Origin: Chloroflexota bacterium
GTDB lineage: Bacteria > Chloroflexota > Anaerolineae > Anaerolineales > Anaerolineaceae
Direction of reading: 5' to 3'
DNA length: 64,000 nucleotides
Assembly (NCBI GenBank): GCA_029777225.1
Contig: JAKOSR010000090.1
Coordinates: forward strand, 637-64,636
Shown here: piece after piece, positions 13,994 to 63,883 of the stretch
Layout of the letters: every line of letters starts with the position of its first letter
How positions within the stretch are numbered: the stretch's first letter is position 1
The notes under the pieces: model-generated
Told to the model about the DNA's origin: nothing
Database searches by the model: none
Seen by the model: the letters and a program-made list of their open reading frames with translations, nothing else
Made by a program: the position numbers and the translations under genes

Positions 13994-14006
13994 GCTATTG
14001 CCTGAC

Positions 14007-14044: not shown

Positions 14045-14052
14045 GTGAGGGC

Positions 14053-14550
14053 GTGTTGGACTTATCGCTTGATGAAATTGAGCGCAGAATGCGCCCAGGA
14101 GAGTTTTCCCAGGCGGGGTTCTTGGGCTGGGATGAATCCCTGGCGGATGTGCTGGCACAAGACGCGCGGGTGCTTCACGAGCTGGGAATAACCGCGGTAG
14201 ATTTGGCCAGCGCGCTGGAGGATTTGCTGGCTGCCGCCCTTTCTGGTGACCCGCCGCATAACCAACGCGAAGGCTACCTGGTTGATATCCATCTGACACC
14301 CGGCTTTCAGATTTGCCCTTTCGCGCCAGACCCCGACCACGCGCAATGCACGGCTGGCGGCGGTGTGCGCTTTGGCTCCGTGGACTGGCGCATTCGAAAC
14401 AAACGCACCGGCCAGCACTTAAAAGGACCTGGATTAATCACCCACCTCATCCGCGCGCACGGCTTTTTTGAAGGGACAGGAACGCCATACCGTGTTGACC
14501 CGGCCGGGCTGGCCAGGCTATTGGAATTGGGTCCGTTCGCAAGGGCCTGA
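14053..14550 (+). CDS. Hypothetical Cys/His-containing protein (165 aa)
   Basis: GTG start and coding-like composition. Contains ICPFAPDPDHAQC and ITHLIRAHGFFEG. I recognise no family. Confidence 0.6.
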   Translation: MLDLSLDEIERRMRPGEFSQAGFLGWDESLADVLAQDARVLHELGITAVDLASALEDLLAAALSGDPPHNQREGYLVDIHLTPGFQICPFAPDPDHAQCTAGGGVRFGSVDWRIRNKRTGQHLKGPGLITHLIRAHGFFEGTGTPYRVDPAGLARLLELGPFARA

Positions 14551-14561
14551 ATTGTGGGGCG

Positions 14562-15509: not shown

Positions 15510-16472
15510 TTACTGATTGAGCAGCGTGTTGTAGGGTTCAGCAAAGAGTGCCGGCGTTCCGCCGGTGTGCCAGAAGAGCACGGTTTCATCCGGGCCGAAG
15601 AAGCCACGCCTGATGAGGTCAACCAGCCCCGCGGCTGCCCGGCCCGTATAGACGGGGTCCAACAGGATGCCTTCCTGGCGCGCGAAGAGTTGAATGGCTT
15701 CCACTTCGGCCGGCTGGAGCATGCCGTATCCGGCCGCGCAGTAGTTGGAATTGACCAGGATGTCTTTGGCTGTTATAGACAAATCCAGGCCTTTGAGGGC
15801 GGCGGCTTCGTTCACCAGGTTGGCGACTGCCGGGCAAAATTCCTGCGCGGGCTTGTCCACGCTCATCCCCAGCACTTTGCCTGGAAAACCGGTCTCGATG
15901 GCGCCAAGCACCAGGCCTGCCTGGGTGCCGCCGGAAGACGTGGCGAAGACAATCCAGTTCGGTTGGCAGCGCTGGTCCTGCAGTTCCCACATGGCCTGGG
16001 CATAACCTTGCGCGCCGAGCGCGTTGGACCCACCGTAGGGGATGAGGTATGGTTTTTGGCCCTGTGCCGAGAGCTCGTCGACGGCTTGCTGGAGACAACT
16101 ATCCCGCTGGGAGGGGTCGGTGAAAATTATCCTGGCCCCCGAGAGGGAATCCAGCAAAAGATTACCTTGTCGCACGGCCGGTGGCTCTCCTGCCAGGACG
16201 AGGACGCAGCCCAGGCCCATTTTGGCCGCGGCCGCGGCCACCTGGCGACAGTGGTTGGATTGGACTGCCCCGGTGCTGACCAGCGTGTCGCAACCCCGTG
16301 CCAGCGCGTCCGCCACCAGGTACTCCAACTTCCGGGTTTTGTTCCCGCCAGGGCCGAGGCCCGTGAGGTCATCGCGCTTGATGAACAGCCGTGGGCCACC
16401 CAGCAGCGCGCTCAGGCGGGGCAGGCCCTCAACAGGCGTGGGAAGATGGGCAAGCTTGAGGCGATTAATCAT
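15510..16472 (-). CDS. PLP-dependent D-cysteine desulfhydrase / ACC deaminase family enzyme
   Basis: Family signature GGNKTRKLEY plus SNHCRQVAAAA and a tryptophan-synthase-beta-like fold pattern. Its ATG overlaps the upstream stop (ATGATTAA). Confidence 0.85.
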   Translation of the reverse strand: MINRLKLAHLPTPVEGLPRLSALLGGPRLFIKRDDLTGLGPGGNKTRKLEYLVADALARGCDTLVSTGAVQSNHCRQVAAAAAKMGLGCVLVLAGEPPAVRQGNLLLDSLSGARIIFTDPSQRDSCLQQAVDELSAQGQKPYLIPYGGSNALGAQGYAQAMWELQDQRCQPNWIVFATSSGGTQAGLVLGAIETGFPGKVLGMSVDKPAQEFCPAVANLVNEAAALKGLDLSITAKDILVNSNYCAAGYGMLQPAEVEAIQLFARQEGILLDPVYTGRAAAGLVDLIRRGFFGPDETVLFWHTGGTPALFAEPYNTLLNQ

Positions 16473-17574
16473 GGGTTGCCTGCTTTCGATTTTGAGCCTT
16501 GCCGCGTCTACGCATCACGTCGAGGACGCGCGGCAGGGTGTTGGTGTAGAAGCGATACAGCATAGGCCGGGTGGTGAAGTCCCACGCGCCAATATGCCTG
16601 GTTGTGGTGCCGTTGAAGCCTTCCTTGAATCGGAACACGCCCCACATTGAGTCGCTTTCATCGAAGACATCCGGCGCGCCCCACATATCATAGGTATGGC
16701 AACCAAGCCGTTTGGCCAGGCGCATACCCTCCCACTGCAACAGGTGATTGGGCATTAGCTCCCGCTGGGCATCGAGGGACATGCCAAACATGTAGCGGGC
16801 GACGCCGGCGAAATGAAACAACACGATGGCCGCGATAGGCGCGTTTTGAAATTCCGCAAATAAAAAGCTGGCCATGTGGGCTTCGAAAAACTCACGCCAA
16901 AGCGTGGTGTAGTAGGCTTCGTGGCGGATGACAAAGCCGTCCCGCACGGCGGTTGTGGCGTACATGCGATAAAGCAAGGGGAGGTCATCCAGGGTTCCTT
17001 CGCGGACACTGACGCCTTTGCGCTGGGCAAGGCGAATGTTATAGCGGGTTTTCTGTTTCATCGCGGCGAGGAGCGTATCCTCATCGCGCTGAATGTCAAT
17101 CAACACCGTGTTACGGAACTGTATTTGGTCGGTAGAAAACTGCCAGCCACGCCTTTGGAGCTCAGAGACCATCCGCGTCCCTTCAGGGGACTCAACGCAG
17201 GATTCCGTTCCAGGAACGCCAACCCCCAAAACGATATCCGGGTCCATCTTGAGCTGAATGGCTTTTTGTTGTTGCGTGTACTCCTGCAGGAAATCCAACA
17301 CCTGACTGACGAGGGCGGGGTTGGACCAATCCAGTGTGGGGCCTTTGGGGCAGTAGAGCACGCACAGCGGGAGGCCGGGTACCAGTTTGAATTCCCGGCG
17401 CAAAATCATGACCGCGGCCAATGGCTGCCCGGAGGCGCCTTTCCAGCCAAACAAGGAAGGTGACCAGCCATTTTGTTGTTTTGAGCGGGCCCATTCCCAG
17501 CTCTGCAGGATGTGGGCGCCGGGCAGCTGCTGGATGAGCGCGTCCCAATCGGCGGGGGGAATAAGGTCAGGCAT
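16465..17574 (-). CDS. FemAB-family peptidoglycan interpeptide-bridge peptidyltransferase (paralog 2)
   Basis: ILQSWEWARSKQQNGW, MKQKTRYNIRLAQRKG and HTYDMWGAP. I prefer the ATG at 17574, which overlaps the upstream stop by 8 nt; the track's N-terminal extension looks non-coding. Confidence 0.85.
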   Translation of the reverse strand: MPDLIPPADWDALIQQLPGAHILQSWEWARSKQQNGWSPSLFGWKGASGQPLAAVMILRREFKLVPGLPLCVLYCPKGPTLDWSNPALVSQVLDFLQEYTQQQKAIQLKMDPDIVLGVGVPGTESCVESPEGTRMVSELQRRGWQFSTDQIQFRNTVLIDIQRDEDTLLAAMKQKTRYNIRLAQRKGVSVREGTLDDLPLLYRMYATTAVRDGFVIRHEAYYTTLWREFFEAHMASFLFAEFQNAPIAAIVLFHFAGVARYMFGMSLDAQRELMPNHLLQWEGMRLAKRLGCHTYDMWGAPDVFDESDSMWGVFRFKEGFNGTTTRHIGAWDFTTRPMLYRFYTNTLPRVLDVMRRRGKAQNRKQATHD

Positions 17575-18565
17575 GCATGCCCTCTTCGGTGCCGGCGCGG
17601 CTCTGACGCCACGCGTAGAGCTTATAAAGCAGGGGGTTGTAAACCTTGACGAAGGCCGGGGCGCAACGGGAAACCTGCCCTCCAAAGCCGCGTTTGAAGC
17701 GGTAGACACCCCATAGGCCATCAGACCGGCTGGTAAAGTTTTCTTCCAGCGTTTGTTCATCCGCGTCCGGGATGCCCCAAAGGTCATACTCCTTGGCGCC
17801 GTGGGCTTTGGACCAGCGCATGGCTTCCCACTGCAGAAGATACGTGGGCATCAGGTTGCGGCTGTTGTCATCGGAACACCCATAGAAATACCAGGCCCGT
17901 TGGCCGTGCAGGAATAGCATCAGGTAAGCCAGCGGTTGCTCACCCAGGCTGGCCTGCAAGAGGACGCACTCGCCTGTGGGCGCGAACAACGCATACGCGC
18001 GGGCGTAATACTCGTAGCTGTGCACCGCGAAGCCATCCCGGCTAGCGGTAGTCTGCATCATTTGGTAAAACCCCCCCAGGTCAGAGCTGGGGGCAACCTG
18101 CACGCCCTTTTTCTCCGCGAGCCGGGCGTTATAACGCGTCTTTTGCTTCATGCCGGCCAACAGGGCGGCTTCGTCCTGTGTGAGGTCGATGAGAATGGTG
18201 CGGCGCGGCTGGATGGTGCGTTCCTGGCGCGTAAAGCCTGGCAGCCACCGGCTGGCAAGGTCAGGGTCATAAGGCTCCATCCAGTCGGGTTCGACCTGGA
18301 GGAAAACGGCCTTTCGTCGGCGACATTCCTGGTCCACCAGTGGCCAAAGTGTCTGCCAGTCCGTTCCCACAGGGCCTTTTGGAATGTACGCGATGGAGAA
18401 GCCCAGGGGCAGATGGCGAAAAAGAACCTGCGCCTGGCAGCTCTCACTGGATGCCTGCCAGGGCTGCCAGCCAAATTGGCGCTTGACATCGCCCCATGCT
18501 TTTGTCTGTAAGAGATGTTCGGATGTGGGGGTGCTGTCTGTGGTTGCCTGATTGAACGTATCCAT
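17567..18565 (-). CDS. FemAB-family peptidoglycan interpeptide-bridge peptidyltransferase (paralog 1)
   Basis: LLQTKAWGDVKRQFGW, MKQKTRYNARLAEKKG and KEYDLWGIP. The architecture parallels the downstream paralog. Confidence 0.85.
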   Translation of the reverse strand: MDTFNQATTDSTPTSEHLLQTKAWGDVKRQFGWQPWQASSESCQAQVLFRHLPLGFSIAYIPKGPVGTDWQTLWPLVDQECRRRKAVFLQVEPDWMEPYDPDLASRWLPGFTRQERTIQPRRTILIDLTQDEAALLAGMKQKTRYNARLAEKKGVQVAPSSDLGGFYQMMQTTASRDGFAVHSYEYYARAYALFAPTGECVLLQASLGEQPLAYLMLFLHGQRAWYFYGCSDDNSRNLMPTYLLQWEAMRWSKAHGAKEYDLWGIPDADEQTLEENFTSRSDGLWGVYRFKRGFGGQVSRCAPAFVKVYNPLLYKLYAWRQSRAGTEEGMHA

Positions 18566-25764: not shown

Positions 25765-26997
25765 CTATTCCAGGCCCAAGGCCTTTTTGAGGTCGGCGAC
25801 TTTGTTTGTTTTCTCCCAGGTCAAATCAAGGTCATCACGGCCGAAGTGGCCATAGGCGGCCAACTGGCGATAAATCGGACGCAGGAGGTTGAGGTCGCGG
25901 ATGATGGCGCGGGGGCGGAGGTCGAACACCTGGCTAATCGCTTCGGCAATCCGGCTGTCTTCGACGGTGCCTGTGCCAAAGGTTTCCACATTGATGCTCA
26001 GGGGTTTGGCAATGCCAATGGCATAGGAAAGCTGGACTTCGCAGCGGGAAGCCAGCCTGGCTGCCACCACGTTTTTGGCGACCCAGCGGGCCGCGTAGGC
26101 TGCGGAACGGTCGACCTTTGTCGGGTCCTTGCCACTGAACGCGCCGCCACCATGCCGGCCCATGCCGCCATAGGTATCGACGATAATCTTACGTCCGGTC
26201 AGGCCGGCATCACCCATGGGGCCACCCACCACGAAACGGCCGGTTGGATTGGTGTAAATGAGGGTGTTTTCATCCAGCAGTTCCTTTGGCAGGACTTTGA
26301 AAATGACCTGTTCCTTGAGGTCCTGGCTGATGCGCTCATTGGTGAGGGTCTTCCCCTCGAACTTGTCGGCGTGCTGGGTGCTGATGAGAACGGTATGGAT
26401 GCGGGCGACTTTGCCGTAGTGGTATTCCACGGTTACCTGGCTCTTACCGTCAGGATACATCCAACCAAGGGTGCCGTTTTTGCGCACTTCCGCCATACGG
26501 CGGCAGAGCTTGTGGGCGTAGTAGATGGGCGCCGGCATAAGCACGTCGGTTTCATCACAGGCGAACCCGAACATAAGGCCCTGGTCACCCGCGCCGCCGG
26601 CTTCCAAGTATTCCTCCGTGTATTCCGTGGTCTTGCCCTTTTTGCCGTTGTGGTCCACACCACGGGCAATATCTGGCGACTGATTGGCCAGGGCGGTCAG
26701 CACACCGCAGGTGGAGGCATCAAAGCCTTTTTTACCGCGGTCATAGCCGATTTCGCCAACTACCTTGCGCACAAGGTGGTCGATATCCACAAATCCTTGC
26801 GTGGTGATTTCCCCAAAGGTCATCACGTAACCAGTTTTGGTGGCTGTTTCGCAGGCCACGCGGCTGTTGGGGTCCTGGGCAATGAGCTCATCCAGCACAG
26901 CGTCACTGACCTGGTCGCAAAGCTTGTCGGGGTGCCCTTCGGTGACCGATTCAGAAGTGAACAGGTACTTGGGCGAATTCATAAACGTTGTTGTCAT
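25765..26997 (-). CDS. metK: S-adenosylmethionine synthase
   Basis: [42 protein letters not shown] and the overall length. Confidence 0.95.
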
Positions 26998-27021: not shown

Positions 27022-27172
<151 letters not shown>

Positions 27173-35410: not shown

Positions 35411-36757
35411 ATGAAGAAGATATCCAGATTTATTATCGTGTTGCTGGTGGCGGGCATGCTTTTGAGCGCCTGCAAAGTGCAGACAGCCACGCCTCCCACT
35501 GAAGAGCCCACCGCGACAACAGAAGTGACAGAAGCGCCGGCGGAAACCACACCAGCAGGCGAAACCGCCGCGACGGTGGACCCCAATGCCACCCCGACCG
35601 CGACCCCCGATACCCGCCTTTTTGATGACGCGGGCAAGATGATTTGCACCCCCTCTGAGCCCTTCTTCCCTGAGCTGACGGCTGAACAAAAAGACCAGCT
35701 GGCCATGTTCCCGGAAATTTCTGACGCGGATTGGCAAACCGGACCCAAGGATGCCATGCTGACGATTTTGGAATACAGCGATTTCCAGTGCCCGGCCTGC
35801 TCCGCTTTTTACGCCGAGCTGGAGAAATTCATGGCGAAATATCCGGACGACGTCCGGCTTGTTTACCGCCACTTCCCGCTGACGAGCTTGCACCCAAACG
35901 CCGTCCAGGCCGCCCAGGCTTCTGAGGCTGCGGGGTTGCAGGGTAAATTCTGGGATATGTACCACTCCCTGTTCTCCAAGCAGAGTGAATGGTCCTCCTT
36001 GACCTCGGAAGCGTTCACGGACTGGCTGGTGGCGGATGCCAAAGCGCTCGGCCTTGATGAGATTCAATTCAAGACTGACCTGCTGAGCGACGCGATTGTT
36101 GAAAAAATCCAGACAGAACTCTCCTACGCGACCTCCATCGGTCTGAATGCCACGCCGACCATCCTGTTGAATGGCCGCCCCTGGCAATACGACTGGTCTT
36201 CCGCGACCCTCAGCCTGGTGGTTGAGGTGCTCAAGGCTGAAAAGAACTTGAAGATGGAATGCCCCCCGTTCGTAATTGACCAAAACAAGACCTACACGGC
36301 CACCATTACCACCGAAAAGGGCGACCTGGTTATCGAACTGTATCCCAAGGAAGCGCCCCTGGCGGTGAACTCATTTGTTTACTTGGCGCGCGAAGGATTC
36401 TATGATGGAATTACCTTCCACCGCGTGATGCATGACTTTGTTGCCCAGACTGGCGACCCCAGTGGAACAGGCATTTCCGGCTCGGGCTACGAATACCGCG
36501 AGGAAACTTCGGACGCGCTCACCTTTGATCAACCCTACATGGTGGGCGTGGCCCGGGCGAACACGGCTGGTACGAGCGGTAGCCAGTTCTTCATCACCTA
36601 TGTGCCTTACAGCTCATTGAATGGTCAGTACACCATCTTCGGGAAACTGATTGCGGGCCAGGATGTGCTGGCGAACATCACGGAACGTGATACCTCCACG
36701 AACCCCGAAGCGGCCCCTGGGGATAAAATCCTCAGCATCACCATCAAGGAGAATTAA
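35411..36757 (+). CDS. Secreted fusion protein: DsbA-like thioredoxin domain plus cyclophilin-type peptidyl-prolyl isomerase
   Basis: Lipobox LLSAC and a PT-rich linker. The N-terminal half has a thioredoxin CxxC (FQCPAC). The C-terminal half has the cyclophilin core FHRVMHDFVAQTGDPSGTG...GSQFFI. Confidence 0.85.
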   Translation: MKKISRFIIVLLVAGMLLSACKVQTATPPTEEPTATTEVTEAPAETTPAGETAATVDPNATPTATPDTRLFDDAGKMICTPSEPFFPELTAEQKDQLAMFPEISDADWQTGPKDAMLTILEYSDFQCPACSAFYAELEKFMAKYPDDVRLVYRHFPLTSLHPNAVQAAQASEAAGLQGKFWDMYHSLFSKQSEWSSLTSEAFTDWLVADAKALGLDEIQFKTDLLSDAIVEKIQTELSYATSIGLNATPTILLNGRPWQYDWSSATLSLVVEVLKAEKNLKMECPPFVIDQNKTYTATITTEKGDLVIELYPKEAPLAVNSFVYLAREGFYDGITFHRVMHDFVAQTGDPSGTGISGSGYEYREETSDALTFDQPYMVGVARANTAGTSGSQFFITYVPYSSLNGQYTIFGKLIAGQDVLANITERDTSTNPEAAPGDKILSITIKEN

Positions 36758-40516: not shown

Positions 40517-41842
40517 CTATGAATAAATCATTGGTTCCTGGGCTGTCACCTTGCGCACGCTGAGCAGGATGAAGAAACCCACAATCAAAAAGAGAATGAT
40601 GGCACCAACCGCCCAGAACAGCCCCGCCTGTTCCGCTGCCAGTTCGGCCATGCCGTGGTTGATGTAGAAGTTGTGCATGCGATAGGAAACCGTGCTAAAT
40701 ACCAGCGGACCGACAAAGGTGGATGTTCGGCCGGCGACGGAAAGGAAGCCGTAAAACTCAGTGGTTTTTCCGGCTGGAGCCAGCTGGGAGACCATCGTGC
40801 GGCTGACAGCCTGGGCCCCGGAGAGCGCGAAGCCGGCGAAGGCACCGATGACGAAGAACATAGTCATGGACTTGATAAAGAAAATCCCAACCAGGGAAAT
40901 CATCAGGACAACAAGGGAAATGGTGATAGCTTGCTTGCTGCTTTGTTTGTCTGAAATCTTGCCAAACAACAGCGCGCCAAGCGCGCCGGTGATTTGGATG
41001 ACAATCACAAACAGGATGAGCTGCACCTGTTCCATGCCAAAGAGAGTGGCGCCGATGATGGCCGCGAAATCCATCAGCATCATGATGCCGTCGTTGTAAA
41101 TCAGAAAGGCGGCCATGTACTTGATGAATTCCTTGTAATTACGTACGTCCCGGAAAGTGGTACCCAACTTTTTTAGGGCGACGCTGAAAACGGACTCACC
41201 GGCTGGAATGATTTCCGGTTCGGTCAGCTCGCGCACTTTCAAATAGATGGGCAAGGAGGAAAGCAGGTAAAAGAAGGCCGCAATCAGGAAGGCGAACGGG
41301 ATGAAAGCGTTGCCGATAAGTTGGATGGGAACAAGGACGAAAAGCAGTGAAATAACCCCGCCAACCATGCCGACCGCCCAGCCCTTGCCTGAGATGTAGC
41401 CGATAGTTTGGGGTGTGGAGATATCCACCAGCAGGGCATCGTAAAACACCTGCGCGCCCCGATAGCCAATTTCAGCAAGAATGAAAAAGACCATGCCGGT
41501 TATCACATCGCCAGCCCGTACAAAGAAGAGCATGGCGGTAAAAATGACCGAGAGGGTGGTGAAGATGAATAGCAGGCGTTTTTTGGAGCGGGAAAAATCC
41601 GCAATGGAACCGAGAATTGGCGAGATGAGCGCGACCAAAACCGCGGCGATGCCGACTGACCAGCCCCACAGACGGGTGCCTTCAGCCCCACCGACGACGG
41701 CGTTTTTGAAGTAGGCTGAATAAACGGCCAACAGGACAATGGCAGCGTAAGAGGAGTTGCCAAAATCGTACATGTACCAGGCGCGCCTGGCCTGGCGGGC
41801 GGACTTAGTTTGGTCCAGTAATGCTTTGGGGGATGTTTCCAT
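40517..41842 (-). CDS. MFS-type transporter (UMF1/Atg22-like, tentative)
   Basis: 12-TM profile with the N-terminal AWYMYDFGNSSYA motif typical of that MFS subfamily. Confidence 0.75.
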   Translation of the reverse strand: METSPKALLDQTKSARQARRAWYMYDFGNSSYAAIVLLAVYSAYFKNAVVGGAEGTRLWGWSVGIAAVLVALISPILGSIADFSRSKKRLLFIFTTLSVIFTAMLFFVRAGDVITGMVFFILAEIGYRGAQVFYDALLVDISTPQTIGYISGKGWAVGMVGGVISLLFVLVPIQLIGNAFIPFAFLIAAFFYLLSSLPIYLKVRELTEPEIIPAGESVFSVALKKLGTTFRDVRNYKEFIKYMAAFLIYNDGIMMLMDFAAIIGATLFGMEQVQLILFVIVIQITGALGALLFGKISDKQSSKQAITISLVVLMISLVGIFFIKSMTMFFVIGAFAGFALSGAQAVSRTMVSQLAPAGKTTEFYGFLSVAGRTSTFVGPLVFSTVSYRMHNFYINHGMAELAAEQAGLFWAVGAIILFLIVGFFILLSVRKVTAQEPMIYS

Positions 41843-42055
41843 GAAATGATTCCTATTCCTTATTGATTTCCGGCCGATTGATAAATGGGATAAGTCACCT
41901 GGGATGATGGTTTCAAAGGACCGGTTGGACTAACAATTTTTTCCGCATTATTGTATCAGACCCTTATCGTTCGCGTGTGAAATGCGCGGGGTGAGACCCG
42001 CTGGCAAGCTTGGGCAAAACGGTCGGAAGAGGTCGCGGTGGTTTAGAATTGGGGC

Positions 42056-42547
42056 ATGACCCAACAGTCCATCACAAACCCCCGGCGATTGCCGGTCGCG
42101 GAAGGCGATTACGCACCTGATTTCACGCTGGCTGATATCAACCAGCGCGTCTTTACGCTTTCAGAGCTCTATCCACTTGGCAAGGTGTTGCTGGTGTTTA
42201 ATATCGGGGTCACCTGAGGGCACTGCGTCCGACACATGGCGCAGTTGTGCCGTGACCAAGCCCGTTTTGACGCAGTGGGGACCAGCGTGCTTGTGCTCGT
42301 GCCCAATGGGCCCAACCTTCTGGGCAGGACGCTGCCGGAAATCCAGCCCACTTACCCGGTTTTGATGGACAAGGGCTCAAAGGTGGCGGCGGTTTATTCG
42401 GGAATAACGCAATACTGGTTGAACGGCACGCCCATGGCCTTTATCGTGGACAAACAGGGCGTGGTGCGGTTCGCGCGGGTTCTGGAATCTCAATCCGACG
42501 AACTGGATAACGAGGAAATTCTCACTTACCTGGCCGGGCTGGATTAA
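42056..42547 (+). CDS. Redoxin / AhpC-TSA family thiol peroxidase-like protein with in-frame TGA (candidate selenocysteine) at 42215-42217
   Basis: My translation from the ATG at 42056: MTQQSITNPRRLPVAEGDYAPDFTLADINQRVFTLSELYPLGKVLLVFNIGVT-TGA-GHCVRHMAQLCRDQARFDAVGTSVLVLVPNG... The same frame continues into track ORF 42236-42547. The TGA occupies the first Cys of the usual W-C-x-x-C motif. An in-frame TAG at 42044 bounds the N-terminus. Confidence 0.6.
42219..42251 (+). promoter_or_regulatory. Stem-loop immediately 3' of the in-frame TGA (possible bacterial SECIS element)
   Basis: GGCACTGCG (42219-42227) pairs with CGCAGT-T-GTGCC (42240-51) around a 12-nt loop. An alternative CAC(AT)GGC-GCAGTTGT-GCCGTG hairpin places a G-initiated loop about 23 nt after the TGA. 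This was not scored with any model. Confidence 0.3.
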
Positions 42548-42570
42548 GCACGCACCCCATGGATAATAAG

Positions 42571-42600
42571 AAACACCCCCGCGTGAAGCGGGGGTGTTTG
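42571..42600. terminator. Bidirectional terminator between the redoxin gene and the P-type ATPase
   Basis: AAACACCCCCGC-GTGAA-GCGGGGGTGTTT is a perfect GC-rich stem between convergent genes. Confidence 0.65.
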
Positions 42601-42619
42601 GGTATCAGAGCTCTGTAAC

Positions 42620-45493
42620 TTAAGCCTTTGAGGTTTCGAATTGCCTGGAGGCAATCGCTTTCATAACTTCCGCGGCAATGCTGGGGAGCAGGATGAGCGG
42701 CAGGATAATCAGCCAATGGGCCAGGTCTATGGAGCTGGTGTTAAAGACGTTCTGCAGGAAGGGCACATAGATAACCAACATTACCAGTACCAGGGAAACC
42801 AACACAGCCAGGTTCATGTTCTTGTTACTGAAGATGCCAATCTTGGTCAGGTTGTAGTATTCCGACCGGGATGTGTAAGCCCGTAGCAGCTCACTGCTGG
42901 AGAGCGTGACAAACGCGAGGGTTTCCGCCAGCTTGAGGCTGCCTTCCATGTTGAAGAGGCTGAGGCCTTTCCAGCCGAGCATGAAAGCGCCAAGGGTCGC
43001 GGTGGTGATGGCGATGGTTTGGACGATGATGCCCCGCAGCATGTACTTGTTGATGATTGGCTCGGTGGTGGGGCGAGGCGGGTGTTGCATGATATCCGGG
43101 TCGCCTTTTTCAGTGCCCAGGGCCAGGGCCGGCGCGCCGTCTGTAACCAGGTTGAGCCACAACAGCTGGATAGCCGTGAGGGGAGGCGGCCAACCGAACA
43201 GCGTGGCAAGGAAGATAATCATAATCTCCGCGATGTTGCAGGAAATCAGGTAGTAGACAAACTTGCGGATGTTGCTGTAGATGATGCGGCCCTGTTCCAC
43301 GGCGGAGACAATGGAGGCGTAATTGTCATCCGTGAGGACCATGTCGGCGGTTTCCTTTGCAACGTCCGTGCCGGTGATGCCCATGGCCACGCCAATATCG
43401 GAGCGTTTAATGGCTGGGGCGTCGTTGACGCCGTCGCCGGTCATCGCGACCACTTCACCATCCTGGCGCAGGGCGTCGACAATCTTCATTTTGTGTTCCG
43501 GGCTAACGCGTGCGTAGACATCGGTTATCTTGACGATTTCGCGCATTTCCTCGGGGGTCTTGTCGTCGATTTCAGCGCCGGTGAGCACCTGGTGACCAGG
43601 CAGCAGCAAGCCGATATCCTCGGCAATGGCCTTGGCGGTGTTCGGGAAATCGCCGGTAATCATGACAGAGCGAATGCCGGCTGTTTGCGCTTCCTTGAGG
43701 GCGGGTTTCACTTCCGGTCGTGAAGGATCAATCATACCAATCAGGCCGACAAAGATGAGGTCCTGTTCCAGGACTTCGCTTTCCAATGCGTCTGGCAGCT
43801 TGGCCACGGGGCGATAAGCCACCCCCAACACACGCAGGGCACGGCTGGTCATCTGTTGGTTCGCGTCCAAAACGGCCTGTTTCAGCTCGTCGGTCATCGG
43901 AATGGGGGCGTTATCCATATCCGCGCGGTACTTGCAGAGGTTCAGAACGACATCGGGGGCACCTTTGACGGCAATCACATGCCAGTTGCGGTCCTGGTCT
44001 GCAAAGAAGGGGGAAATGTCGCCACCGCCCGGATTGACGATGCTATGGATGGTGACCATGCGCTTGCGGACGGAGTCAAACGGAATTTCCTGCTTACGCG
44101 GGTAGGCCTGGTTGAGTGTCTTGGCGGATGCGCCAGCTTTGAGCGCGGCCACCAGGATGGACCCTTCGGTTGGGTCGCCAACCATGCGGTACGTGGATTT
44201 TCCTTCACTTTCACCGGAGCTTTCGAGCTGGGCGTCGTTGTTGAGCGTGCCAATCCACAGCGCGGTGCGGGCCGAGGGGTAGCGTGTTATGTCAATCTTG
44301 TTGCCATCAATCATAAAGTCGCCGACCGGTTCGTAGCCGGTGCCGGTGATATCGATGTACTGATCGTCGGTCCAGAGGCTGGTAACGGTCATTTGGTTTT
44401 GGGTGAGGGTGCCCGTCTTATCGGTGCAAATGGTGGTGACGGAGCCCAGGGTTTCCACGGACGCCAGTTTGCGGATGAGGGCGTGGCGGTTGACCATTTC
44501 ACGCATGCCACCAGCCAGGCTGATGGTGACCACGGCAGGCAAGCCTTCGGGGACAGCGGCGATTGCAAGCGAGACAGCAATCATGAACAGGTCCAACAGA
44601 CCGTCCTGGATAACCTTGCTGCCAAGGTCGAGGCCGCCATGGGTGATGAACAGCCGAATGGCGCCAATGCCGAAGACCAGGCCACACACCACCATGGCAG
44701 CGATGCCGAGGGTCTTGCCGAGCTGGTCCAGGCGCTTTTGCAGCGGGGTTTGTTCTTCTTCCACGGTTTGCAGCATGGTGGCAATCAGGCCCAGTTGCGT
44801 GTGCATACCGGTGCTGGTGACCACGCCCTTGCCACGGCCATAGGTGACGGTGGTGCCCATGAATGCGCTGTTCTGACGGTCCCCAATGGGGATGTCAGCG
44901 TTTAGCTGGCCTTCCGCGCTCTTTTTCGCCGGGACGGATTCGCCGGTGAGCGAGGCTTCTTCGATGCTCAGGTTAATGGCCTCCAGCAGGCGGATATCCG
45001 CGGGTACGAAGTTGCCGGCTTCGATGAACACCAGGTCACCCGGGACCAGTTCACGGGCCGGGATGGTTTGGCGGTGGCCGTCACGCAACACCTGGGATTC
45101 GGGGGCGGCCATCTTGCGCAGGGCAGCTAACGAGGCCTGGGCGCGTGACTCCTGGACAATGCCCATGATGGCATTCAGGACTACAATCAAGAGGATGGCG
45201 CCGGCTTCAACCCAGTCCCCCAGGACCATGGAAATGGCAGCAGCCCCAATCAGTAGCCAGATTACAAAGCTGTTGATTTGTTCCCAAAGCATCTGGAGAA
45301 AGGTGGTGCCTTTCTTTTCGACCAGTTCGTTAGTGCCATACTGGGCAATGCGCCGGCTGGCCTCTTCGGCGCTCAAACCGGTTTCAGCAGGCACATCCAG
45401 CTCCTGGAGCACCTGCTCGGGCTGAAGCGCGTGCCAGGAGATGCTCAGCTTCTCATCGGGAGCGGCCTGGGTCTTATCGGAATTTTCACTCAT
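42620..45493 (-). CDS. P-type cation-transporting ATPase (type IIA, Ca2+-ATPase-like)
   Basis: LTGES, the phosphorylation site ICTDKTGTLTQN, MITGDFPNTA, the hinge MTGDGVNDAPAIK and 10 TM segments. AAGGAGGAAGG RBS. Confidence 0.9.
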   Translation of the reverse strand: MSENSDKTQAAPDEKLSISWHALQPEQVLQELDVPAETGLSAEEASRRIAQYGTNELVEKKGTTFLQMLWEQINSFVIWLLIGAAAISMVLGDWVEAGAILLIVVLNAIMGIVQESRAQASLAALRKMAAPESQVLRDGHRQTIPARELVPGDLVFIEAGNFVPADIRLLEAINLSIEEASLTGESVPAKKSAEGQLNADIPIGDRQNSAFMGTTVTYGRGKGVVTSTGMHTQLGLIATMLQTVEEEQTPLQKRLDQLGKTLGIAAMVVCGLVFGIGAIRLFITHGGLDLGSKVIQDGLLDLFMIAVSLAIAAVPEGLPAVVTISLAGGMREMVNRHALIRKLASVETLGSVTTICTDKTGTLTQNQMTVTSLWTDDQYIDITGTGYEPVGDFMIDGNKIDITRYPSARTALWIGTLNNDAQLESSGESEGKSTYRMVGDPTEGSILVAALKAGASAKTLNQAYPRKQEIPFDSVRKRMVTIHSIVNPGGGDISPFFADQDRNWHVIAVKGAPDVVLNLCKYRADMDNAPIPMTDELKQAVLDANQQMTSRALRVLGVAYRPVAKLPDALESEVLEQDLIFVGLIGMIDPSRPEVKPALKEAQTAGIRSVMITGDFPNTAKAIAEDIGLLLPGHQVLTGAEIDDKTPEEMREIVKITDVYARVSPEHKMKIVDALRQDGEVVAMTGDGVNDAPAIKRSDIGVAMGITGTDVAKETADMVLTDDNYASIVSAVEQGRIIYSNIRKFVYYLISCNIAEIMIIFLATLFGWPPPLTAIQLLWLNLVTDGAPALALGTEKGDPDIMQHPPRPTTEPIINKYMLRGIIVQTIAITTATLGAFMLGWKGLSLFNMEGSLKLAETLAFVTLSSSELLRAYTSRSEYYNLTKIGIFSNKNMNLAVLVSLVLVMLVIYVPFLQNVFNTSSIDLAHWLIILPLILLPSIAAEVMKAIASRQFETSKA

Positions 45494-50212: not shown

Positions 50213-51718
50213 ATGAGCAGGTTTGGCCTGAAGTCCTTAGCTCTCGTCGCTTCCCTGCTGGTGGTTTCGGTTGCGTGCCGGTTTTCCTCTCCAACACCAG
50301 TGGCATGGTCTGGCACGTCCACGGCCAAAGTTTTGGGCCTCACGCAGACGGCCGCCGCCCCATCCGCCACCGCCACACACCCGCCCCTACCGACGGAAAC
50401 GCCCCCGGTGCCTGAGACGACGCCGCGGACGGACGCTGCCATCCCAGCGGACGGCCCCTGGCTGATTTTCCCAAATGAAAACAACACCATGCTCTACGCC
50501 CTGGACCGGGATACGAGGGAGCTGGCTACGTTGAACCTGCCACCGCTCGTGGAGTTGGGCGACCTCGCGGTTGGAATTGCCCCGGATAGCTCCAGCCTGG
50601 TGCTGCGGGCCGGCAACCTGGACACACTGGAAAACCTTGGCCTTTACAGGGTGCAAAACCCGGTGGACCCGCCCGAGCTGGTGAGCCCGTTGCTCGCGGA
50701 TTTCGTCATCAAGTCCATCGGCGAGCGGAATGATCCGCAGGCATCTTTTGCCCTGCAGGCGGTGTTACAGCCCAACGCGCTGGCATGGAAGCCCAACAGC
50801 CAGTCCGTGGTGTTCCCCGCGGCCATCGAGGGGGTGGCGGCCAATCTGCGCGCCTACCAACCCGCGAGCGGGAAGGTGACACGCCTTTCCGTACGGTATC
50901 AGCAGAACTTCTCCCCGCTCTGGAATCCAAGCGGACAAACGTTGCTCTTCCAGGAGGTGGACACGCTCAACAACCCGTCGGCCTGGAAGCCTTACCTCGT
51001 CACCAGCCTCAACTTGGGCAACCCCGGCAACCTGTACTACCTGTACAAGCCCCCGGCCAACAGCCAGGCGGAGGTTTTCGTGGGGTGGATAAACAATGCC
51101 CAGGCGGTCAGTTACACCCTGACGGAGGAGGGCAACCGCTTCGTGCGCGTCCTGAACGCGGCTTCGGGCGGCTCGCCAAGGGTTATTTATTCCGGTTTTT
51201 TTGATGAAATCGCGGTGGATCCAGACGATGGGGTCATCGCGTTGGCGGTGGGGGTGGACGCGGCCAGGCAAAACGGCGTCAGCCCGGGGATTTACCTTTC
51301 CAACAGCGCGTTGAACGCTTTTGGGCTGGTGAGCGTGGGTACTTTTTCCCACCTCTCCTATTCACAGACTGAAGGATCGTTTTTTGCCAGCGGTGAAATA
51401 GGCCTGGTGTCTTTTTCCACCAATGGCCTGGAGTTCAGCCTGGCGGGTGAAGCCCAGGCCAGCGCTTCACCGGACGGCGCGTGGCTGGTGACGTGGGGTG
51501 GGCAGGGCGCGCGGCTGCGTACGCCAGATGGCACTTTGTTGCAGGAAATCACTTCTAGCTCCGTCAGCGCGCTGGTGTGGCAGCGGGATGGCAAGGGGTT
51601 TTACCTCCTGCTGGAGGATGGGCTTTATCACTACACCTTCCCGTTGCTCCAGGGGGTATTGGTTTGCGAGGACGTTTCCCGGACGGATGAAACCTGGTTT
51701 GCCTGGCTGGGGAAGTGA
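50213..51718 (+). CDS. Hypothetical lipoprotein, possibly beta-propeller-like
   Basis: Lipobox LLVVSVAC and a PT-rich linker, followed by repeated strand-like segments. I recognise no catalytic motif. Confidence 0.7.
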   Translation: MSRFGLKSLALVASLLVVSVACRFSSPTPVAWSGTSTAKVLGLTQTAAAPSATATHPPLPTETPPVPETTPRTDAAIPADGPWLIFPNENNTMLYALDRDTRELATLNLPPLVELGDLAVGIAPDSSSLVLRAGNLDTLENLGLYRVQNPVDPPELVSPLLADFVIKSIGERNDPQASFALQAVLQPNALAWKPNSQSVVFPAAIEGVAANLRAYQPASGKVTRLSVRYQQNFSPLWNPSGQTLLFQEVDTLNNPSAWKPYLVTSLNLGNPGNLYYLYKPPANSQAEVFVGWINNAQAVSYTLTEEGNRFVRVLNAASGGSPRVIYSGFFDEIAVDPDDGVIALAVGVDAARQNGVSPGIYLSNSALNAFGLVSVGTFSHLSYSQTEGSFFASGEIGLVSFSTNGLEFSLAGEAQASASPDGAWLVTWGGQGARLRTPDGTLLQEITSSSVSALVWQRDGKGFYLLLEDGLYHYTFPLLQGVLVCEDVSRTDETWFAWLGK

Positions 51719-60244: not shown

Positions 60245-60625
60245 ATGCAAAAAAACCTGACCCCCAACATGACGCGCAGAGTGGCGCGTGAAAAAGACAC
60301 CGTCAGCAAGATGATTACGCTGTATTGTCATGCGAGGCATGGTTCCGACGGCGCGCTGTGCACGGATTGCGCCGCTTTACGCGACTACGCACTCGACCGG
60401 ATTGACCGCTGCATGTTCCAGCCCGATAAGCCGGCGTGCGGGCGCTGCCCGGTGCACTGTTACCAACCTGAAATGCGCGCGCGTATCCGCGAGGTCATGC
60501 GTTACGCCGGCCCACGCATGCTCTTCCGCCACCCGATCGCAGCCGCTCATCATTTGGCGCATACCATAAGCAAACCAAGCGAGAAAGTCCGTCGGGTCGC
60601 GGATATCAGGCTTTCCCGCGAATAA
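60245..60625 (+). CDS. Nitrous-oxide-stimulated-promoter (YgbA-like) family Cys-rich protein
   Basis: ITLYCHARHG...LCTDCAAL...DRCMF...KPACGRCPVHCY...MRYAGPRM matches my recollection of the YgbA_NO family. Confidence 0.7.
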   Translation: MQKNLTPNMTRRVAREKDTVSKMITLYCHARHGSDGALCTDCAALRDYALDRIDRCMFQPDKPACGRCPVHCYQPEMRARIREVMRYAGPRMLFRHPIAAAHHLAHTISKPSEKVRRVADIRLSRE

Positions 60626-60736: not shown

Positions 60737-60879
60737 ATTAATAGTAACTTTCGCCTGTCCTCTCGTGTCTCTGACACCCAAACAAAACAAAATCCATCGA
60801 TACCAAACGCGGACACCTTTCCAGGTGTTCTGCCAACCAACCATGAAGCTGTTCACATATGAAGCAAAGGAGTATCAAA

Positions 60880-63303
60880 ATGACGACTCTGGAATTCCCT
60901 ATTGAATTTGATAAAAAGCCGGAGCAGGAACTGGACCTGATGGTTTGCGTCTTTGACTCCGGTGGCAAATTGTTAAAATCCACCAAGGTTAAAAAGGGCA
61001 AAGCCAGCCTGCCCGCGGAAATTTTGCAGGAAAAGGACATCAAAGTCTTTGTTTCACCAGCCCTCCCCGGGCCAAAGAAGCCGACTTTGGAAGGCTTGTT
61101 GGCTGCTGGCGCGCTCGAGCCAGGCTTTGAACTGGATCCCGCGAAAACCAAGTTTAGATTACGACCCATTCCGATTGACAAGATAAAGTTATGGCTGATG
61201 TGTCCCTGCCTGGTCAAAGGGAGAGTGGCACGGCCGATCATCGTCAATGGCCATGTGGTCTACAAGAATGTCTATGGAGCCAAGGTCCATATCTGCGAGG
61301 TCGATAAGCTTTTCCTACTTATTCCGCGTTTACCCAAGGATGTGCTCTTCCGCTTCCGCGATGAGCTCATCAAGGATTGGAAAAGGTACCGGACCCTGCC
61401 AGATCCACCGATTGTTGTGAAATTTCCCTGGCCACCACCGCCTCCCGACCCCTACCGCCTCTTCCCGGTACGGTATCCCGATAAAGAAATCGAGGGAGAA
61501 CGGGTGACGCCAATCAACTTACCGGCGGTTCAGGAAAGCGCTTATCGCTTCAACCTGGCGCCCAATACGGCGGTTTCACATACCAACTGGTTGAATCCAC
61601 AGCCCGAACCGCCAATGCCGGAGTACATTACTCCCCGCTTGCTGCCCATGGCCGAAACAGCCAAACCGACGCTCAAAACCATGTCCGCTCGCAAGCTTAA
61701 GGAGCAACCCCTGCTGATTGACACCATCCCAGCCGAAGTTTCGAAGCAACTTAATTCGAATTCAGTGACCGAAATAAGCGCGGCATTGGTCAAACTCCGC
61801 CCGATGATCCTGCCATACATCTGTCTGTGGCCCTGGTTGCACCCCTACATTTGCCTGTGGGATGAAATTGCCACCGTCATGACCGATTGCGATGGCTTCC
61901 ATACCACCATCTGGTACCGCTGCGCGGGGGACAAGCCGGATCTGTACTTCTGGGTGGAATACCCCATCGCGGGTGTCTGGACGACCGTGTACAATCCCAA
62001 ACCTATCTGCTGCTACGTTCATTGGGATTACGAATGTGGCAAAGAAGTGCTGCTGCCGGTGACGGATACACGCGTACCGTGGTGCTATCCAAATCCAGAT
62101 CTCACTGACTATAAGGTCCTGGTCAAGACCATCGGCAATGGGCTGAGCATGAGCGAGATCCAGAAAACCCCGGGACCGAAAAAGGGAAAGACCACCGCGG
62201 GCGAACCCCTGGCTGGTTCTCTTGAGCTGCGCCTGGATATGAGCCGCAGCAACCTGATCAGCCTGGGTGTAACGCAGTACCGTGTGTCGTACACCCGCAA
62301 GACCCAGGGCAATGGCACCACCGCGGTCGCGGATACCTGGCATACCATGTTGCGCGAGGTCTATCGACCGTATGAGGTCAAGGTTCCTATCCCTGGAATG
62401 CCTCCGCACTTCCTAACACAATATAAATACGAAAAAACGGGACCGTTCGGCGCTGATTCGCTGTTCAAGATTCAGCCGAACGCTCCGACTGTTGGCGTCT
62501 GGTACAACTCGGTGATGAATGAGCATATTGACCTTGCCTGGGCGTATTTTGAGACCGCCAGCCTTAAAGAAAGCGATGGCGTCACGCCGGCGGTTGGGCA
62601 GTATGACATCAAGCTGGAGCTGTTCGACAGCAGTGGTAACCTGGTGAAATGGAACAATCCAACCGGAACCGGACAAAGTATTGACGCCTTTATCACCAAC
62701 AACCCCGCGCCATTCGTTCCGCCGACAGGCATGACTGAGATACCTGCACCGGCCGCTAACCTGATCAAGGATGGGTCGGGTAACACGATCGGGTTCATCC
62801 TGACCCTGTTCGTGGATAACACCCCCTGCGAAGCGGTGATCGACGATCCCTACCTGCTTGAGAATCCTGCCGTGTTGTCCGGTCCATGTGGTTTCCTGTT
62901 CTTCAATTCAAGCGCCACTTCGACAGCCCATTTGCGCTTCCTGGCCAGGCAGGCTTTCGATCACGCCGTGTTCACGTTCTGGACGGTGAAAGGCAGCTCG
63001 GGGTACATACCGGCAGCCACACTCGGATGGAATTTCTTGACCTCCACTTATCAGTCCCTGCCTGTGCACGACCTGACACCTGGGGCCTACCCGGTGAATG
63101 GATTTAATCGTTCCGTCGATAGCCACTTCAGCAAGGATCTGCTGGTGACAGCTCTGCTGAATGCCAATGGCACAATTTGTCCACAGGCCGCCTTCGCGAC
63201 CACCCTGGGAGTCTATTCAACTGCCTACGACGGCTACACCCAGGCTTATTGGCTAAACGCCTGGGCGGTACCAAAGGCTTTCGCGTTGGCTCCCAAACCC
63301 TGA
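60880..63303 (+). CDS. Large hypothetical protein (807 aa), Cys/Trp/Pro-rich, with no recognisable catalytic domain
   Basis: The ATG at 60880 has AAGGAG 7 nt upstream; the track start at 60859 is less likely. It has no signal peptide or TM. One segment resembles a carboxypeptidase-regulatory-like beta sandwich (CLVKGRVARPIIVNGHVVYKNVYGAKVHICEVD). It also has a poly-Pro tract (FPWPPPPPDPY) and a Cys/Trp-rich core. Confidence 0.8.
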   Translation: MTTLEFPIEFDKKPEQELDLMVCVFDSGGKLLKSTKVKKGKASLPAEILQEKDIKVFVSPALPGPKKPTLEGLLAAGALEPGFELDPAKTKFRLRPIPIDKIKLWLMCPCLVKGRVARPIIVNGHVVYKNVYGAKVHICEVDKLFLLIPRLPKDVLFRFRDELIKDWKRYRTLPDPPIVVKFPWPPPPPDPYRLFPVRYPDKEIEGERVTPINLPAVQESAYRFNLAPNTAVSHTNWLNPQPEPPMPEYITPRLLPMAETAKPTLKTMSARKLKEQPLLIDTIPAEVSKQLNSNSVTEISAALVKLRPMILPYICLWPWLHPYICLWDEIATVMTDCDGFHTTIWYRCAGDKPDLYFWVEYPIAGVWTTVYNPKPICCYVHWDYECGKEVLLPVTDTRVPWCYPNPDLTDYKVLVKTIGNGLSMSEIQKTPGPKKGKTTAGEPLAGSLELRLDMSRSNLISLGVTQYRVSYTRKTQGNGTTAVADTWHTMLREVYRPYEVKVPIPGMPPHFLTQYKYEKTGPFGADSLFKIQPNAPTVGVWYNSVMNEHIDLAWAYFETASLKESDGVTPAVGQYDIKLELFDSSGNLVKWNNPTGTGQSIDAFITNNPAPFVPPTGMTEIPAPAANLIKDGSGNTIGFILTLFVDNTPCEAVIDDPYLLENPAVLSGPCGFLFFNSSATSTAHLRFLARQAFDHAVFTFWTVKGSSGYIPAATLGWNFLTSTYQSLPVHDLTPGAYPVNGFNRSVDSHFSKDLLVTALLNANGTICPQAAFATTLGVYSTAYDGYTQAYWLNAWAVPKAFALAPKP

Positions 63304-63345
63304 TGATGTGACATGAGAAAACCCGCTTAAGTTTACTTACGTTGT

Positions 63346-63379
63346 GAGGCTGCTGAAATCCAGCAGCCTCCGCTTTTTT
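63346..63379 (+). terminator. Intrinsic terminator after the 807-aa orphan
   Basis: GAGGCTGCTG-AAATC-CAGCAGCCTC followed by CGCTTTTTT. Confidence 0.85.
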
Positions 63380-63454
63380 ATGGGTCTTGTCCAAACTCAG
63401 CGTTGCGGGAACAACAGTCAAAACGATAACATTACTAAAAAAAAGGAGAGACAG

Positions 63455-63883
63455 ATGGCAGATCGAGAAGCGACAGCGGTGTGGGAGGGTGCCGTTCCCG
63501 GTGGGAAAGGCGTGATGAAATTCGCGGATTATGCGGGGCAATTCAGTTACAGCTCGCGATTTGAAGAAGGCGTGGGCACCAACCCGGAGGAGCTGTTGGG
63601 AGGCGCGCTGGCTGGTTGCTTCGCCATGGCCGTGAGCAGTGGTCTGACGAAGGCTGGCTACACCCCTAAATTGGTACAAGTGACGGCAAAGGTGGCTCTC
63701 CGGCGTATAGAGGGAAAGGCCCGCATCCCTTCCATCCACCTGGTTTTGGTAGCGGATGTGCCCGACGTCTCCGCGGAGGACTTCCAACGGATTGCGGCTG
63801 AACGCAAGGCGGATTGCCCGGTGTCGTTCGCGCTGGCTGGTGTAGAGATTACGCTCGAGGCGACTTTGAACCCCGCAAACTGA
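63455..63883 (+). CDS. osmC: OsmC-family peroxiredoxin-like protein
   Basis: MADREATAVWEG, GTNPEELLGGALAGCFAMA and ADCPVS (the two conserved Cys). AAAGGAGAG RBS. The track start at 63344 runs through the upstream terminator. Confidence 0.85.
   Translation: MADREATAVWEGAVPGGKGVMKFADYAGQFSYSSRFEEGVGTNPEELLGGALAGCFAMAVSSGLTKAGYTPKLVQVTAKVALRRIEGKARIPSIHLVLVADVPDVSAEDFQRIAAERKADCPVSFALAGVEITLEATLNPAN

Follow-up and report, generated by a model that had tools for sequence, protein, structure and literature searches.

An in-frame TGA as a predicted selenocysteine codon in a peroxiredoxin-like gene of an Anaerolineaceae bacterium

A 64,000-nt stretch of a contig assigned to a Chloroflexota bacterium of the family Anaerolineaceae (GCA_029777225.1, JAKOSR010000090.1, positions 637 to 64,636; here called the window, with positions counted from its first letter) contains a small redoxin gene interrupted by a single in-frame TGA. 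This TGA, at 42215, very probably specifies selenocysteine (Sec, U) at the active site of a small peroxiredoxin (Prx)-like redox protein, and we regard 42056–42547 with high confidence as a real Sec-encoding gene. A preliminary description of this DNA had proposed a selenoprotein cut short by the calling of open reading frames (ORFs), the TGA taking the place of the first redox Cys to give a UxxC motif in a thioredoxin fold. That proposal is supported by the conservation of the TGA, by its pairing with Cys in homologues and by a conserved hairpin downstream.

Gene structure and relatives

The ORF listing of the window gave two pieces in one frame, 42056–42217, encoding 53 amino acids (aa) and ending in the TGA, and 42236–42547, encoding 103 aa. 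Translated as one, 42056–42547 comprised 163 sense codons followed by TAA, with the TGA at 42215–42217 as the sole internal stop (Table 1). Translation and listing agree with the earlier account, in which only a 103-aa ORF from 42236 was listed and the full gene had 163 codons. The protein reads MTQQ...APDFTL...LSELYPLGKVLLVFNIGVT*GHCVRHMAQLC..., and the TGA stands in the context ...KVLLVFNIGVT-TGA-GHCVRHMAQLC... (motif V-T-U-G-H-C). With Cys written in place of the stop, the Pfam domain AhpC-TSA (PF00578) matched residues 17–139, across the TGA (E = 4.8e-16, 59.3 bits against a cut-off of 26), and Redoxin (PF08534) also matched (E = 8e-12); the AhpC-TSA/redoxin fold noted earlier across the stop was found with both. 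Since one AhpC-TSA domain spans the TGA, 42056–42547 is a single gene.

Relatives are labelled P (database proteins) or L (DNA loci fetched for homologues). The close clade consisted of nine distinct sequences including that of the window; the others were L001, L006, L007, L105/L106, L107, L108, L109 and L110, with L006 and L007 originating from a metagenome scan and L105–L110 reached via the DNA of truncated database proteins. TGA was present at the site in 9/9 members, and TAA, TAG or a Cys codon in 0/9. The eight further members shared 29–43% identity with the window protein, came from loci of 45–62% G+C and had frames open on either side of the TGA, which lay in the motif FN(I/L)G(F/V)-x-TGA-(P/G/V/M)-H-C. 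Four assemblies obtained independently from this species (ERZ15185053 and ERZ28615154 from ENA, Ga0116171 and Ga0209099 from JGI; L002–L005) had the same TGA; its flanks in them were identical to those in the window, and differences occurred at other positions. A scan of genome contigs, in which one of two patterns demanded a Cys codon at the Sec site, returned no close relative, only homologues of 23–32% identity. L105 (1–160) and L106 (3–83) represented the same clade member and were identical from about eight codons before the TGA onwards. Their N-terminal parts were quite different, and the APDFTL motif was absent from L105, a pattern suggestive of chimerism in the assembly or of a breakpoint of recombination.

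P0002, the closest full-length database relative (44% identity), had W at the Sec position. In its DNA (L001) the codon is TGA, and the W is thus a product of translating with a code that assigns TGA to Trp. In an exhaustive HMMER search with P0002 against 1.84 billion cluster representatives, all close relatives (38–55% identity) were fragments of 67–122 aa, most of which began with the Met that lies five codons beyond the Sec position. With a profile of eight full-length clade members, 249 clusters were obtained at E <= 1e-10. Among the best 120 of these, 115 were 102–117 aa long and covered only the C-terminal 59–66% of the query, the other five were full length and all had W at the Sec position, and none had a Cys form. 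Close relatives with TGC or TGT, which the preliminary description had named as possible grounds against a Sec codon, were therefore found neither in the clade nor among the 120 best database relatives. Named matches were a "hypothetical protein [Chloroflexi bacterium]" and a JGI "peroxiredoxin", as well as proteins from Anaerolineaceae. Trp occupied the Sec position in the public predictions P0002, P0207–P0210, P0064 and P0073; the underlying TGA was read in the DNA for P0002. At least some metagenome gene calls thus used a TGA = Trp code, masking selenoproteins as 'W' variants.

The Sec site was aligned with Cys in P0004, P0066, P0070, P0071, P0075 and L044/L045, which constitutes a Sec/Cys pair. 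A Cys sister group with approximately 32–40% identity to P0002 carried VFNRGF-x-C-x-x-C (P0070, P0071, P0075). More distant Cys relatives were (Y/F)RGxWCxxC proteins; these have the W-C-x-x-C previously described for homologues, as HWCPYC in P0004, DWCPFC in P0066 and SWCSGC in L044. Additionally, the metagenome scan revealed distant AhpC/TSA clades with TGA at the same column: YRTGS-U-GPC (L008), YRGYW-U-PFC (L010, L015–L018), HRGTW-U-PNC (L012/L013), LRGTW-U-PNC (L014), GRGTW-U-PHC (L020) and RSGDW-U-PFC (L027). Two other metagenomic loci, L011 (423; FTGG-TGA-T) and L029 (1124; FTPG-TGA-T), encoded true peroxiredoxins with TGA at the peroxidatic Cys, of the PrxU-type TxxU. L029 contained a hairpin compatible with the model of the bacterial selenocysteine insertion sequence (SECIS) described below.

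Table 1. Features at and around the predicted Sec-encoding gene, in window positions
Feature	Position	Strand	Evidence
Complete Prx-like (AhpC/TSA-fold) gene, predicted selenoprotein, 163 codons, ATG to TAA	42056–42547	+	Translation; PF00578 spanning the TGA; full-length alignment with TGA-bearing homologues
In-frame TGA, predicted Sec codon (residue 54), first position of U-G-H-C	42215–42217	+	TGA also in L002–L005 (same species), L001, L006, L007, L105–L110; aligned with the first Cys of CxxC in P0004, P0066, P0070, P0071, P0075
TGC, Cys57, putative resolving Cys of UxxC; aligned with the peroxidatic Cys of AhpE and BCP	42224–42226	+	HMMER alignments to PDB chains; invariant in the clade alignment
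103-aa ORF given by ORF callers and databases, probable artefactual truncation starting at Met61	42236–42547	+	P0001 and 115/120 best relatives called likewise
Predicted bacterial SECIS core, 8-bp stem CAUGGCGC/GUGCCGUG, apical loop AGUU (42243–42246), 25 nt after the UGA	42235–42254	+	Folding; RNAalifold consensus; pairing across nine homologues
Alternative hairpin, mutually exclusive with 42235–42254	42219–42249	+	−13.7 kcal/mol; 88% of cells paired
G124-T125-P126, thioredoxin-type proline motif, putative cis-proline, at the place of the Prx catalytic Arg	42425–42433	+	Alignments to AhpE and A. pernix BCP
Intergenic region between this gene and the divergent MFS/Atg22-like gene, presumed promoter region	41843–42055		Gene map
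12-bp GC-rich hairpin, terminator-like, possibly bidirectional	42571–42599		Scored on the minus strand; plus-strand T-run weak

A conserved hairpin downstream of the TGA

The hairpin at 42235–42254 had a minimum free energy (MFE) of −11.4 kcal/mol with a z-score of −4.27, and its counterparts in homologues had −8.5 to −10.2 kcal/mol. It was the RNAalifold consensus of the nine clade sequences and was kept in all nine. Pairs were formed in 94.4% of the cells, compared to 17–58% with the 3' strand slid by 1–3 columns, in a stem that is built from the codons for H-M-A-Q-L-C-R-D and so overlaps the conserved amino acids H-M-A-Q-L. Compensation was seen once (G-C to A-U in L006), and there were several changes on one side only, giving G-U or U-G. 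The loop codons were frozen, with CAG for Gln and TTG for Leu in 9/9 sequences each, while other conserved Leu columns used two to five codons.

The consensus model of the bacterial SECIS comprises a loop of 3–9 nt, an upper stem of 4–16 bp, an MFE <= −7.5 kcal/mol, a G at loop position 1 or 2 with G or U as the next base, and a spacing of 16–37 nt between UGA and loop (PMC13188914). The hairpin at 42235–42254 agreed with this model in all respects (loop of 4 nt, A-G-U-U; stem of 8 bp; spacing of 25 nt; −11.4 kcal/mol). Background rates were taken from 15,214 codon positions within genes of the window, to which the model rules were applied with uninterrupted stems: 5.3% of the positions passed, 1.6% had a stem of at least 8 bp and 1.1% were as stable as this hairpin. 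A SECIS-like fold above background, for which the preliminary description had asked, was thus present and conserved. The model was passed by 14/18 TGA-bearing homologues, with loops AGUU, GGU, GGG or GUU; among the four that failed, L001 and L108 did so only by a single internal mismatch. Support for the hairpin comes from retained pairing, model fit and frozen synonymous sites, not from covariation.

The preliminary description had placed its stem-loop at 42219–42251. Essentially this structure can form, as the hairpin 42219–42249 (Table 1), but its z-score of −1.26 was unremarkable and the relatives favoured the overlapping 42235–42254. It was the RNAalifold consensus with four sequences and no longer with nine. 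Its inner four pairs each failed in 1–4 of the nine sequences (three of them in 2–4), its loop begins 11–13 nt after the UGA, and 8/9 sequences had no G in the first two loop bases. Covariation was likewise not significant compared to column shuffles. Because the consensus was lost with nine sequences and loop and spacing fell outside the published model, this hairpin was dropped as a SECIS candidate. The evidence favours 42235–42254 as the predicted SECIS.

Alternative explanations, Sec machinery and genomic context

Several observations weigh against a Sec codon at 42215. Genes for SelA, SelB and SelD (selA, selB, selD) and for tRNA-Sec were found neither in the 64-kb window, nor in the next 5 kb, nor in the fetched clade loci. 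The additional 5 kb were viewed on a contig of GCA_035402885.1 with an identical copy of the window's glutamate dehydrogenase (GdhA) and the same neighbouring genes. Neither the window nor 21 related loci contained a tRNA-Sec according to ARAGORN, Pfam searches of all 56 long window ORFs gave no SelA, SelB or SelD, and tblastn with E. coli SelA, SelB and SelD against the window and 110 loci gave only a SelD in L080, from an unrelated organism. The competing hairpin at 42219–42249 is more stable than the predicted SECIS, is largely conserved and cannot form together with it. Covariation in 42235–42254 was weak and not significant, the observed value being reached in 264/500 column shuffles. Rfam contained no matching model, either at gathering thresholds for the whole window or at E <= 10 for 41850–42650, where the only matches were chance ones to the terminator hairpin. 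No NCBIfam model reached its cut-off (ResA, NF002854, 40.3 bits vs 170; SelL-related, NF040769, 39.6 vs 120; BCP, 24 vs 140), and the proposed function is drawn from homology, the gene neighbourhoods not being conserved.

The SelD of L080 (contig RCMY010003716.1, 1728–2711, minus strand) was itself a selenoprotein (FSHGAG-TGA-ACK), and its gene lay approximately 2.3 kb away from that of an AhpE-like peroxiredoxin of the Cys type. The 90% clusters that include window proteins also include proteins named Anaerolineaceae bacterium (Chloroflexota) at NCBI. The literature lends indirect support to Sec use in this lineage: a Sec-specific elongation factor is encoded by Anaerolinea thermophila UNI-1 and, along with formate dehydrogenases of the Sec type, by single-cell genomes of Anaerolineales (PMC4959059). 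The Chloroflexota include the very selenoprotein-rich Dehalococcoidia (PMC13326102).

Four other explanations of the TGA were weighed. The UGA might specify Trp, Cys or Gly in place of Sec, via an alternative code or near-cognate suppression, as would agree with the W in the database translations of five homologues and with a source genome for which no Sec machinery was seen in the window and fetched loci. However, 14 of the window's 55 long ORFs ended in TGA, and an in-frame TGA interrupted none of its other genes. A scan of the window for same-frame ORF pairs joined by a single TGA, outside long ORFs, gave no other plausible candidate. The window therefore uses the standard code with TGA as an ordinary stop, and genetic codes 4 and 25 were ruled out by the stop-codon usage. 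Furthermore, the W of P0002 stems from a TGA in the DNA, the site is the position of the catalytic nucleophile with Cys in homologues, a conserved hairpin fitting the SECIS model follows the codon, and SelB has been reported for Anaerolineales. We consider decoding as a standard amino acid very unlikely.

That the TGA is a true stop, the locus yielding an N-terminal peptide of 53 aa and, from the ATG at 42236, a separate C-terminal protein of 103 aa, is highly improbable. The Met at 42236 was conserved in 8/9 homologues and a start at this type of Met was picked by gene callers everywhere, but the split would cut one thioredoxin-fold domain inside the active site, setting beta1–beta3 apart from the Cys-bearing helix. 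The six codons between TGA and ATG, including those of the invariant H and C, were conserved although they would be untranslated, and L107 had Val (GTG) instead of Met, so an ATG restart is not universal. If the TGA is read as Sec, the Met belongs to the conserved H-M-A-Q-L helix and to the SECIS stem.

A pseudogene, formed by a recent TGG- or TGC-to-TGA nonsense mutation in an ordinary CxxC or WxxC redoxin, has a minimal chance. TGC, TGT and TGG are each one substitution from TGA, the gene is annotated as a fragment and no Sec machinery was seen within the window. Against this, the TGA is shared by nine distinct homologues and by the more distant clades, and 29–43% identity to the window protein together with differing G+C excludes copies of one assembly sequence. 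TAA or TAG never occurred at the site, and no close Cys-bearing relative was present among the 120 best matches. Pairwise mismatch rates within the clade at codon positions 1/2/3 were 0.35/0.23/0.67 upstream and 0.35/0.31/0.59 downstream of the TGA, and the amino-acid identity among clade pairs was 53% upstream and 50% downstream. These values point to protein-coding selection on both gene halves, with the part upstream of the stop still under purifying selection, and no further disruption was found. The conservation of the TGA effectively refutes a pseudogene. A false stop created by sequencing or assembly error, a default concern for any single in-frame stop for which nothing specific spoke here, has next to no probability and was excluded by the identical TGA and flanks in four independent assemblies from different projects that differ elsewhere. 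Both alternatives raised in the preliminary description, nonsense mutation and sequencing error, were thereby set aside in favour of a Sec codon.

The selenoprotein gene stands alone, divergent from an MFS/Atg22-like transporter gene (40517–41842, minus strand) and convergent with a P-type cation ATPase gene (42620–45493, minus strand) across a 72-nt spacer, within which the terminator-like hairpin at 42571–42599 lies. A promoter may lie in the divergent intergenic region, in which no sigma-70-like match was found. No conserved neighbourhood was detected: the neighbours differed in every homologous locus and included RecA, an ABC transporter, a methyltransferase, a metallo-beta-lactamase-fold protein and a glutaredoxin-flavoprotein fusion. 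As the neighbours are unrelated across loci, the context gives no functional clue. The fusion, of glutaredoxin and pyridine-nucleotide-disulfide oxidoreductase (396 aa), was encoded on L107 (58–1248, minus strand), approximately 1 kb upstream on the opposite strand, and could be a reductase partner, although this neighbour is not conserved in other loci.

Other genes in the window were recorded as well. Approximately 5 kb from the selenoprotein gene, a further redox and folding gene at 35411–36757 (plus strand) encodes a 448-aa fusion of DsbA/Thioredoxin_4 and a cyclophilin-type peptidyl-prolyl isomerase and is followed by a PrsW-like protease gene. A full-length heliorhodopsin gene (6727–7518, minus strand; PF18761, E = 4e-97, 263 aa) adjoins tRNA-Glu (7877–7949), and the identical protein was present on 156 contigs. 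An S-adenosylmethionine (SAM)-I riboswitch (RF00162, 85.7 bits; 27068–27168, minus strand) lies directly upstream of metK, the S-adenosylmethionine synthetase gene (25765–26997, minus strand). Two FemAB-family ORFs within a cell-envelope/glycosyltransferase cluster (16465–17787 and 17567–18565, both minus strand) overlap by approximately 220 nt in the ORF listing; this is probably a start-codon issue in two adjacent paralogues. Long ORFs with no Pfam match at E <= 1e-5 were 60859–63303 (plus strand, 814 aa), 50213–51718 (plus strand, 501 aa), 13127–15449 and others. The 814-aa ORF is flanked by an OsmC-like gene (63344–63883) and a YgbA_NO-family gene (60245–60625).

Active site and relation to known families

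The best PDB match of the single sequence was Mycobacterium tuberculosis AhpE (E = 9e-8), while the clade profile matched Aeropyrum pernix BCP/PrxQ best (7e-19), followed by a Sulfolobus Prx, AhpE and then ResA (3e-12). In an AlphaFold model of P0002 (predicted local distance difference test, pLDDT, 87.9; predicted TM score, pTM, 0.86), the active-site helix begins directly after the Sec position. Foldseek with this model returned AhpE (TM score 0.88–0.90), BCP and ResA, where AhpE-like sequences in the input alignment may favour AhpE. In alignments to AhpE and A. pernix BCP (PDB 5c04/1xvw and 2cx3), Cys57 fell on the peroxidatic Cys (Cp) of peroxiredoxins, Sec54 on their conserved Thr/Ser, Ile50 on their conserved Pro and Pro126 of G-T-P on their catalytic Arg. 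G-T-P was common to P0002 and the majority of the clade, some members varying at T or P. The N-terminus MTQQSITNPRRLPVAEGDY, as read from the sequence, contained no hydrophobic segment, so that the protein is presumably cytoplasmic. The protein appears to combine a Prx-like scaffold with an active site of the thioredoxin/ResA/TlpA type, consisting of UxxC and a putative cis-proline.

Following the established bacterial mechanism, the UGA at 42215 would be decoded as Sec, with SelB and Sec-tRNA(Sec) recruited by the mRNA hairpin within the coding sequence (8-bp stem, AGUU loop, 25 nt downstream). The 163-residue protein would be a selenol/thiol oxidoreductase of the thioredoxin type, in which Sec54, at the N-terminus of the active-site helix, would attack an oxidised substrate, a disulfide or possibly a hydroperoxide; Cys57 would resolve the adduct as a selenenylsulfide, and a cellular reductant would recycle the selenenylsulfide. 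We lean towards this specific thiol-disulfide oxidoreductase mechanism, and we infer Sec insertion itself, the interaction with SelB, the substrate and the redox partner.

For annotation, the 103-aa "redoxin domain-containing protein" would be replaced by a 163-residue selenoprotein. Gene callers routinely cut this branch to approximately 104 residues, and it is missing from curated selenoprotein models. The gene would imply the use of Sec in an abundant Anaerolineaceae lineage that was found in dozens of assemblies. As a clean case of a putative SECIS overlaid on conserved codons, the clade could serve to train selenoprotein predictors or to extend curated HMMs. The kind of selenoprotein is already known, and the understanding of Sec decoding and of thioredoxin-fold chemistry is unchanged.

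Among known families, AhpE and BCP/PrxQ (PDB 1xvw, 2cx3, 2ywn) gave the best sequence and structure match and share the fold, the length and the alignment of Cys57 with the peroxidatic Cys. The protein is not a canonical peroxiredoxin, because the Pro, Thr and Arg of peroxiredoxins are replaced by Ile50, Sec54 and Pro126. Assignment as a catalytic peroxiredoxin was rejected: PxxxT/SxxC and the Arg are missing, and NCBIfam Prx models gave 24 bits against cut-offs of at least 140. ResA, TlpA and CcmG-type oxidoreductases (PDB 1st9, 4nmu) share the CxxC-type motif at a helix N-terminus, the G-T-P and a profile match at E = 3e-12, and ResA was the top NCBIfam match. They differ in that the window protein has Sec for the first Cys and carries no N-terminal membrane anchor or signal sequence; the missing anchor and the low NF002854 score led to rejection of a ResA/TlpA oxidoreductase. 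The dipeptide between U and C was P-H in most clade members and G-H in the window protein, which we take to be the dipeptides of DsbA and protein disulfide isomerase, respectively. The P-H of the clade's U-P-H-C is also that of an engineered CPHC variant of ResA (PDB 3c71), as well as of DsbA. PrxU (TxxU) and SelL-related proteins (NF040737, NF040769) are selenoproteins of the same superfamily. In PrxU, however, Sec occupies the Cp position, which lies three residues further along the chain than the Sec of the window protein; the PrxU model gave no match to the window protein at E <= 0.01, and P0002 scored 24 bits against a cut-off of 270. A SelL-related redox protein was rejected too, since the match to NF040769 was below cut-off and covered residues 20–109 only.

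The closest agreement was with the Prx-like thiol:disulfide oxidoreductase selenoproteins (PF00578, UxxC/UxxU; reference protein WP_010940744.1), which the surveys of Gladyshev and Zhang call 'Prx-like protein' or 'Prx-like 1' (PMC1088965, PMC2398784, PMC9312934, PMC13188914). Prx-like proteins with UxxC in PF00578 were already among the known selenoprotein families in the 2005 Sargasso Sea survey (PMC1088965), were traced across genomes in 2006 (PMC1794560) and accounted for 225 sequences of "Prx-like 1" in the Global Ocean Sampling (GOS) survey (PMC2398784). The family was predicted computationally, has been recognised for approximately two decades and has a predicted function. In its members, an AhpC/TSA domain contains a thioredoxin-like UxxC, with Sec leading, where Prx have TxxC; Cys homologues with CxxC exist, and the ORF itself includes a SECIS hairpin directly after the Sec codon. 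With the domain, a UxxC with Sec first, Cys homologues and a predicted SECIS, the window gene has the features of the Prx-like family and appears to belong to it as a divergent branch. The usual (Y/H)RGxW-U-P-x-C context, as in L010, L012, L014, L020 and L027, was not found in the window clade, which has its own motif FN(I/L)G(F/V)-x-U-(P/G/V/M)-H-C-x-(N/R)-H-(M/V)-x-Q-L. The window protein shared 27–36% identity with metagenomic members of the (Y/H)RGxW-U-P-x-C type. The clade also differs in that only the Sec form occurred among the sequences compared and that its named members are from Anaerolineaceae or Chloroflexi.

It is possible, though rather doubtful, that these sequences form a distinct, so far unnamed clade of Prx-like selenoproteins: Sec-only, cytoplasmic, with named members from Chloroflexota/Anaerolineae, a DsbA/protein disulfide isomerase-like U-P-H-C or U-G-H-C and a SECIS loop fixed in the invariant A-Q-L segment. 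Such a clade might differ in function from the classical Prx-like proteins, for example by an unusually oxidising selenenylsulfide couple.

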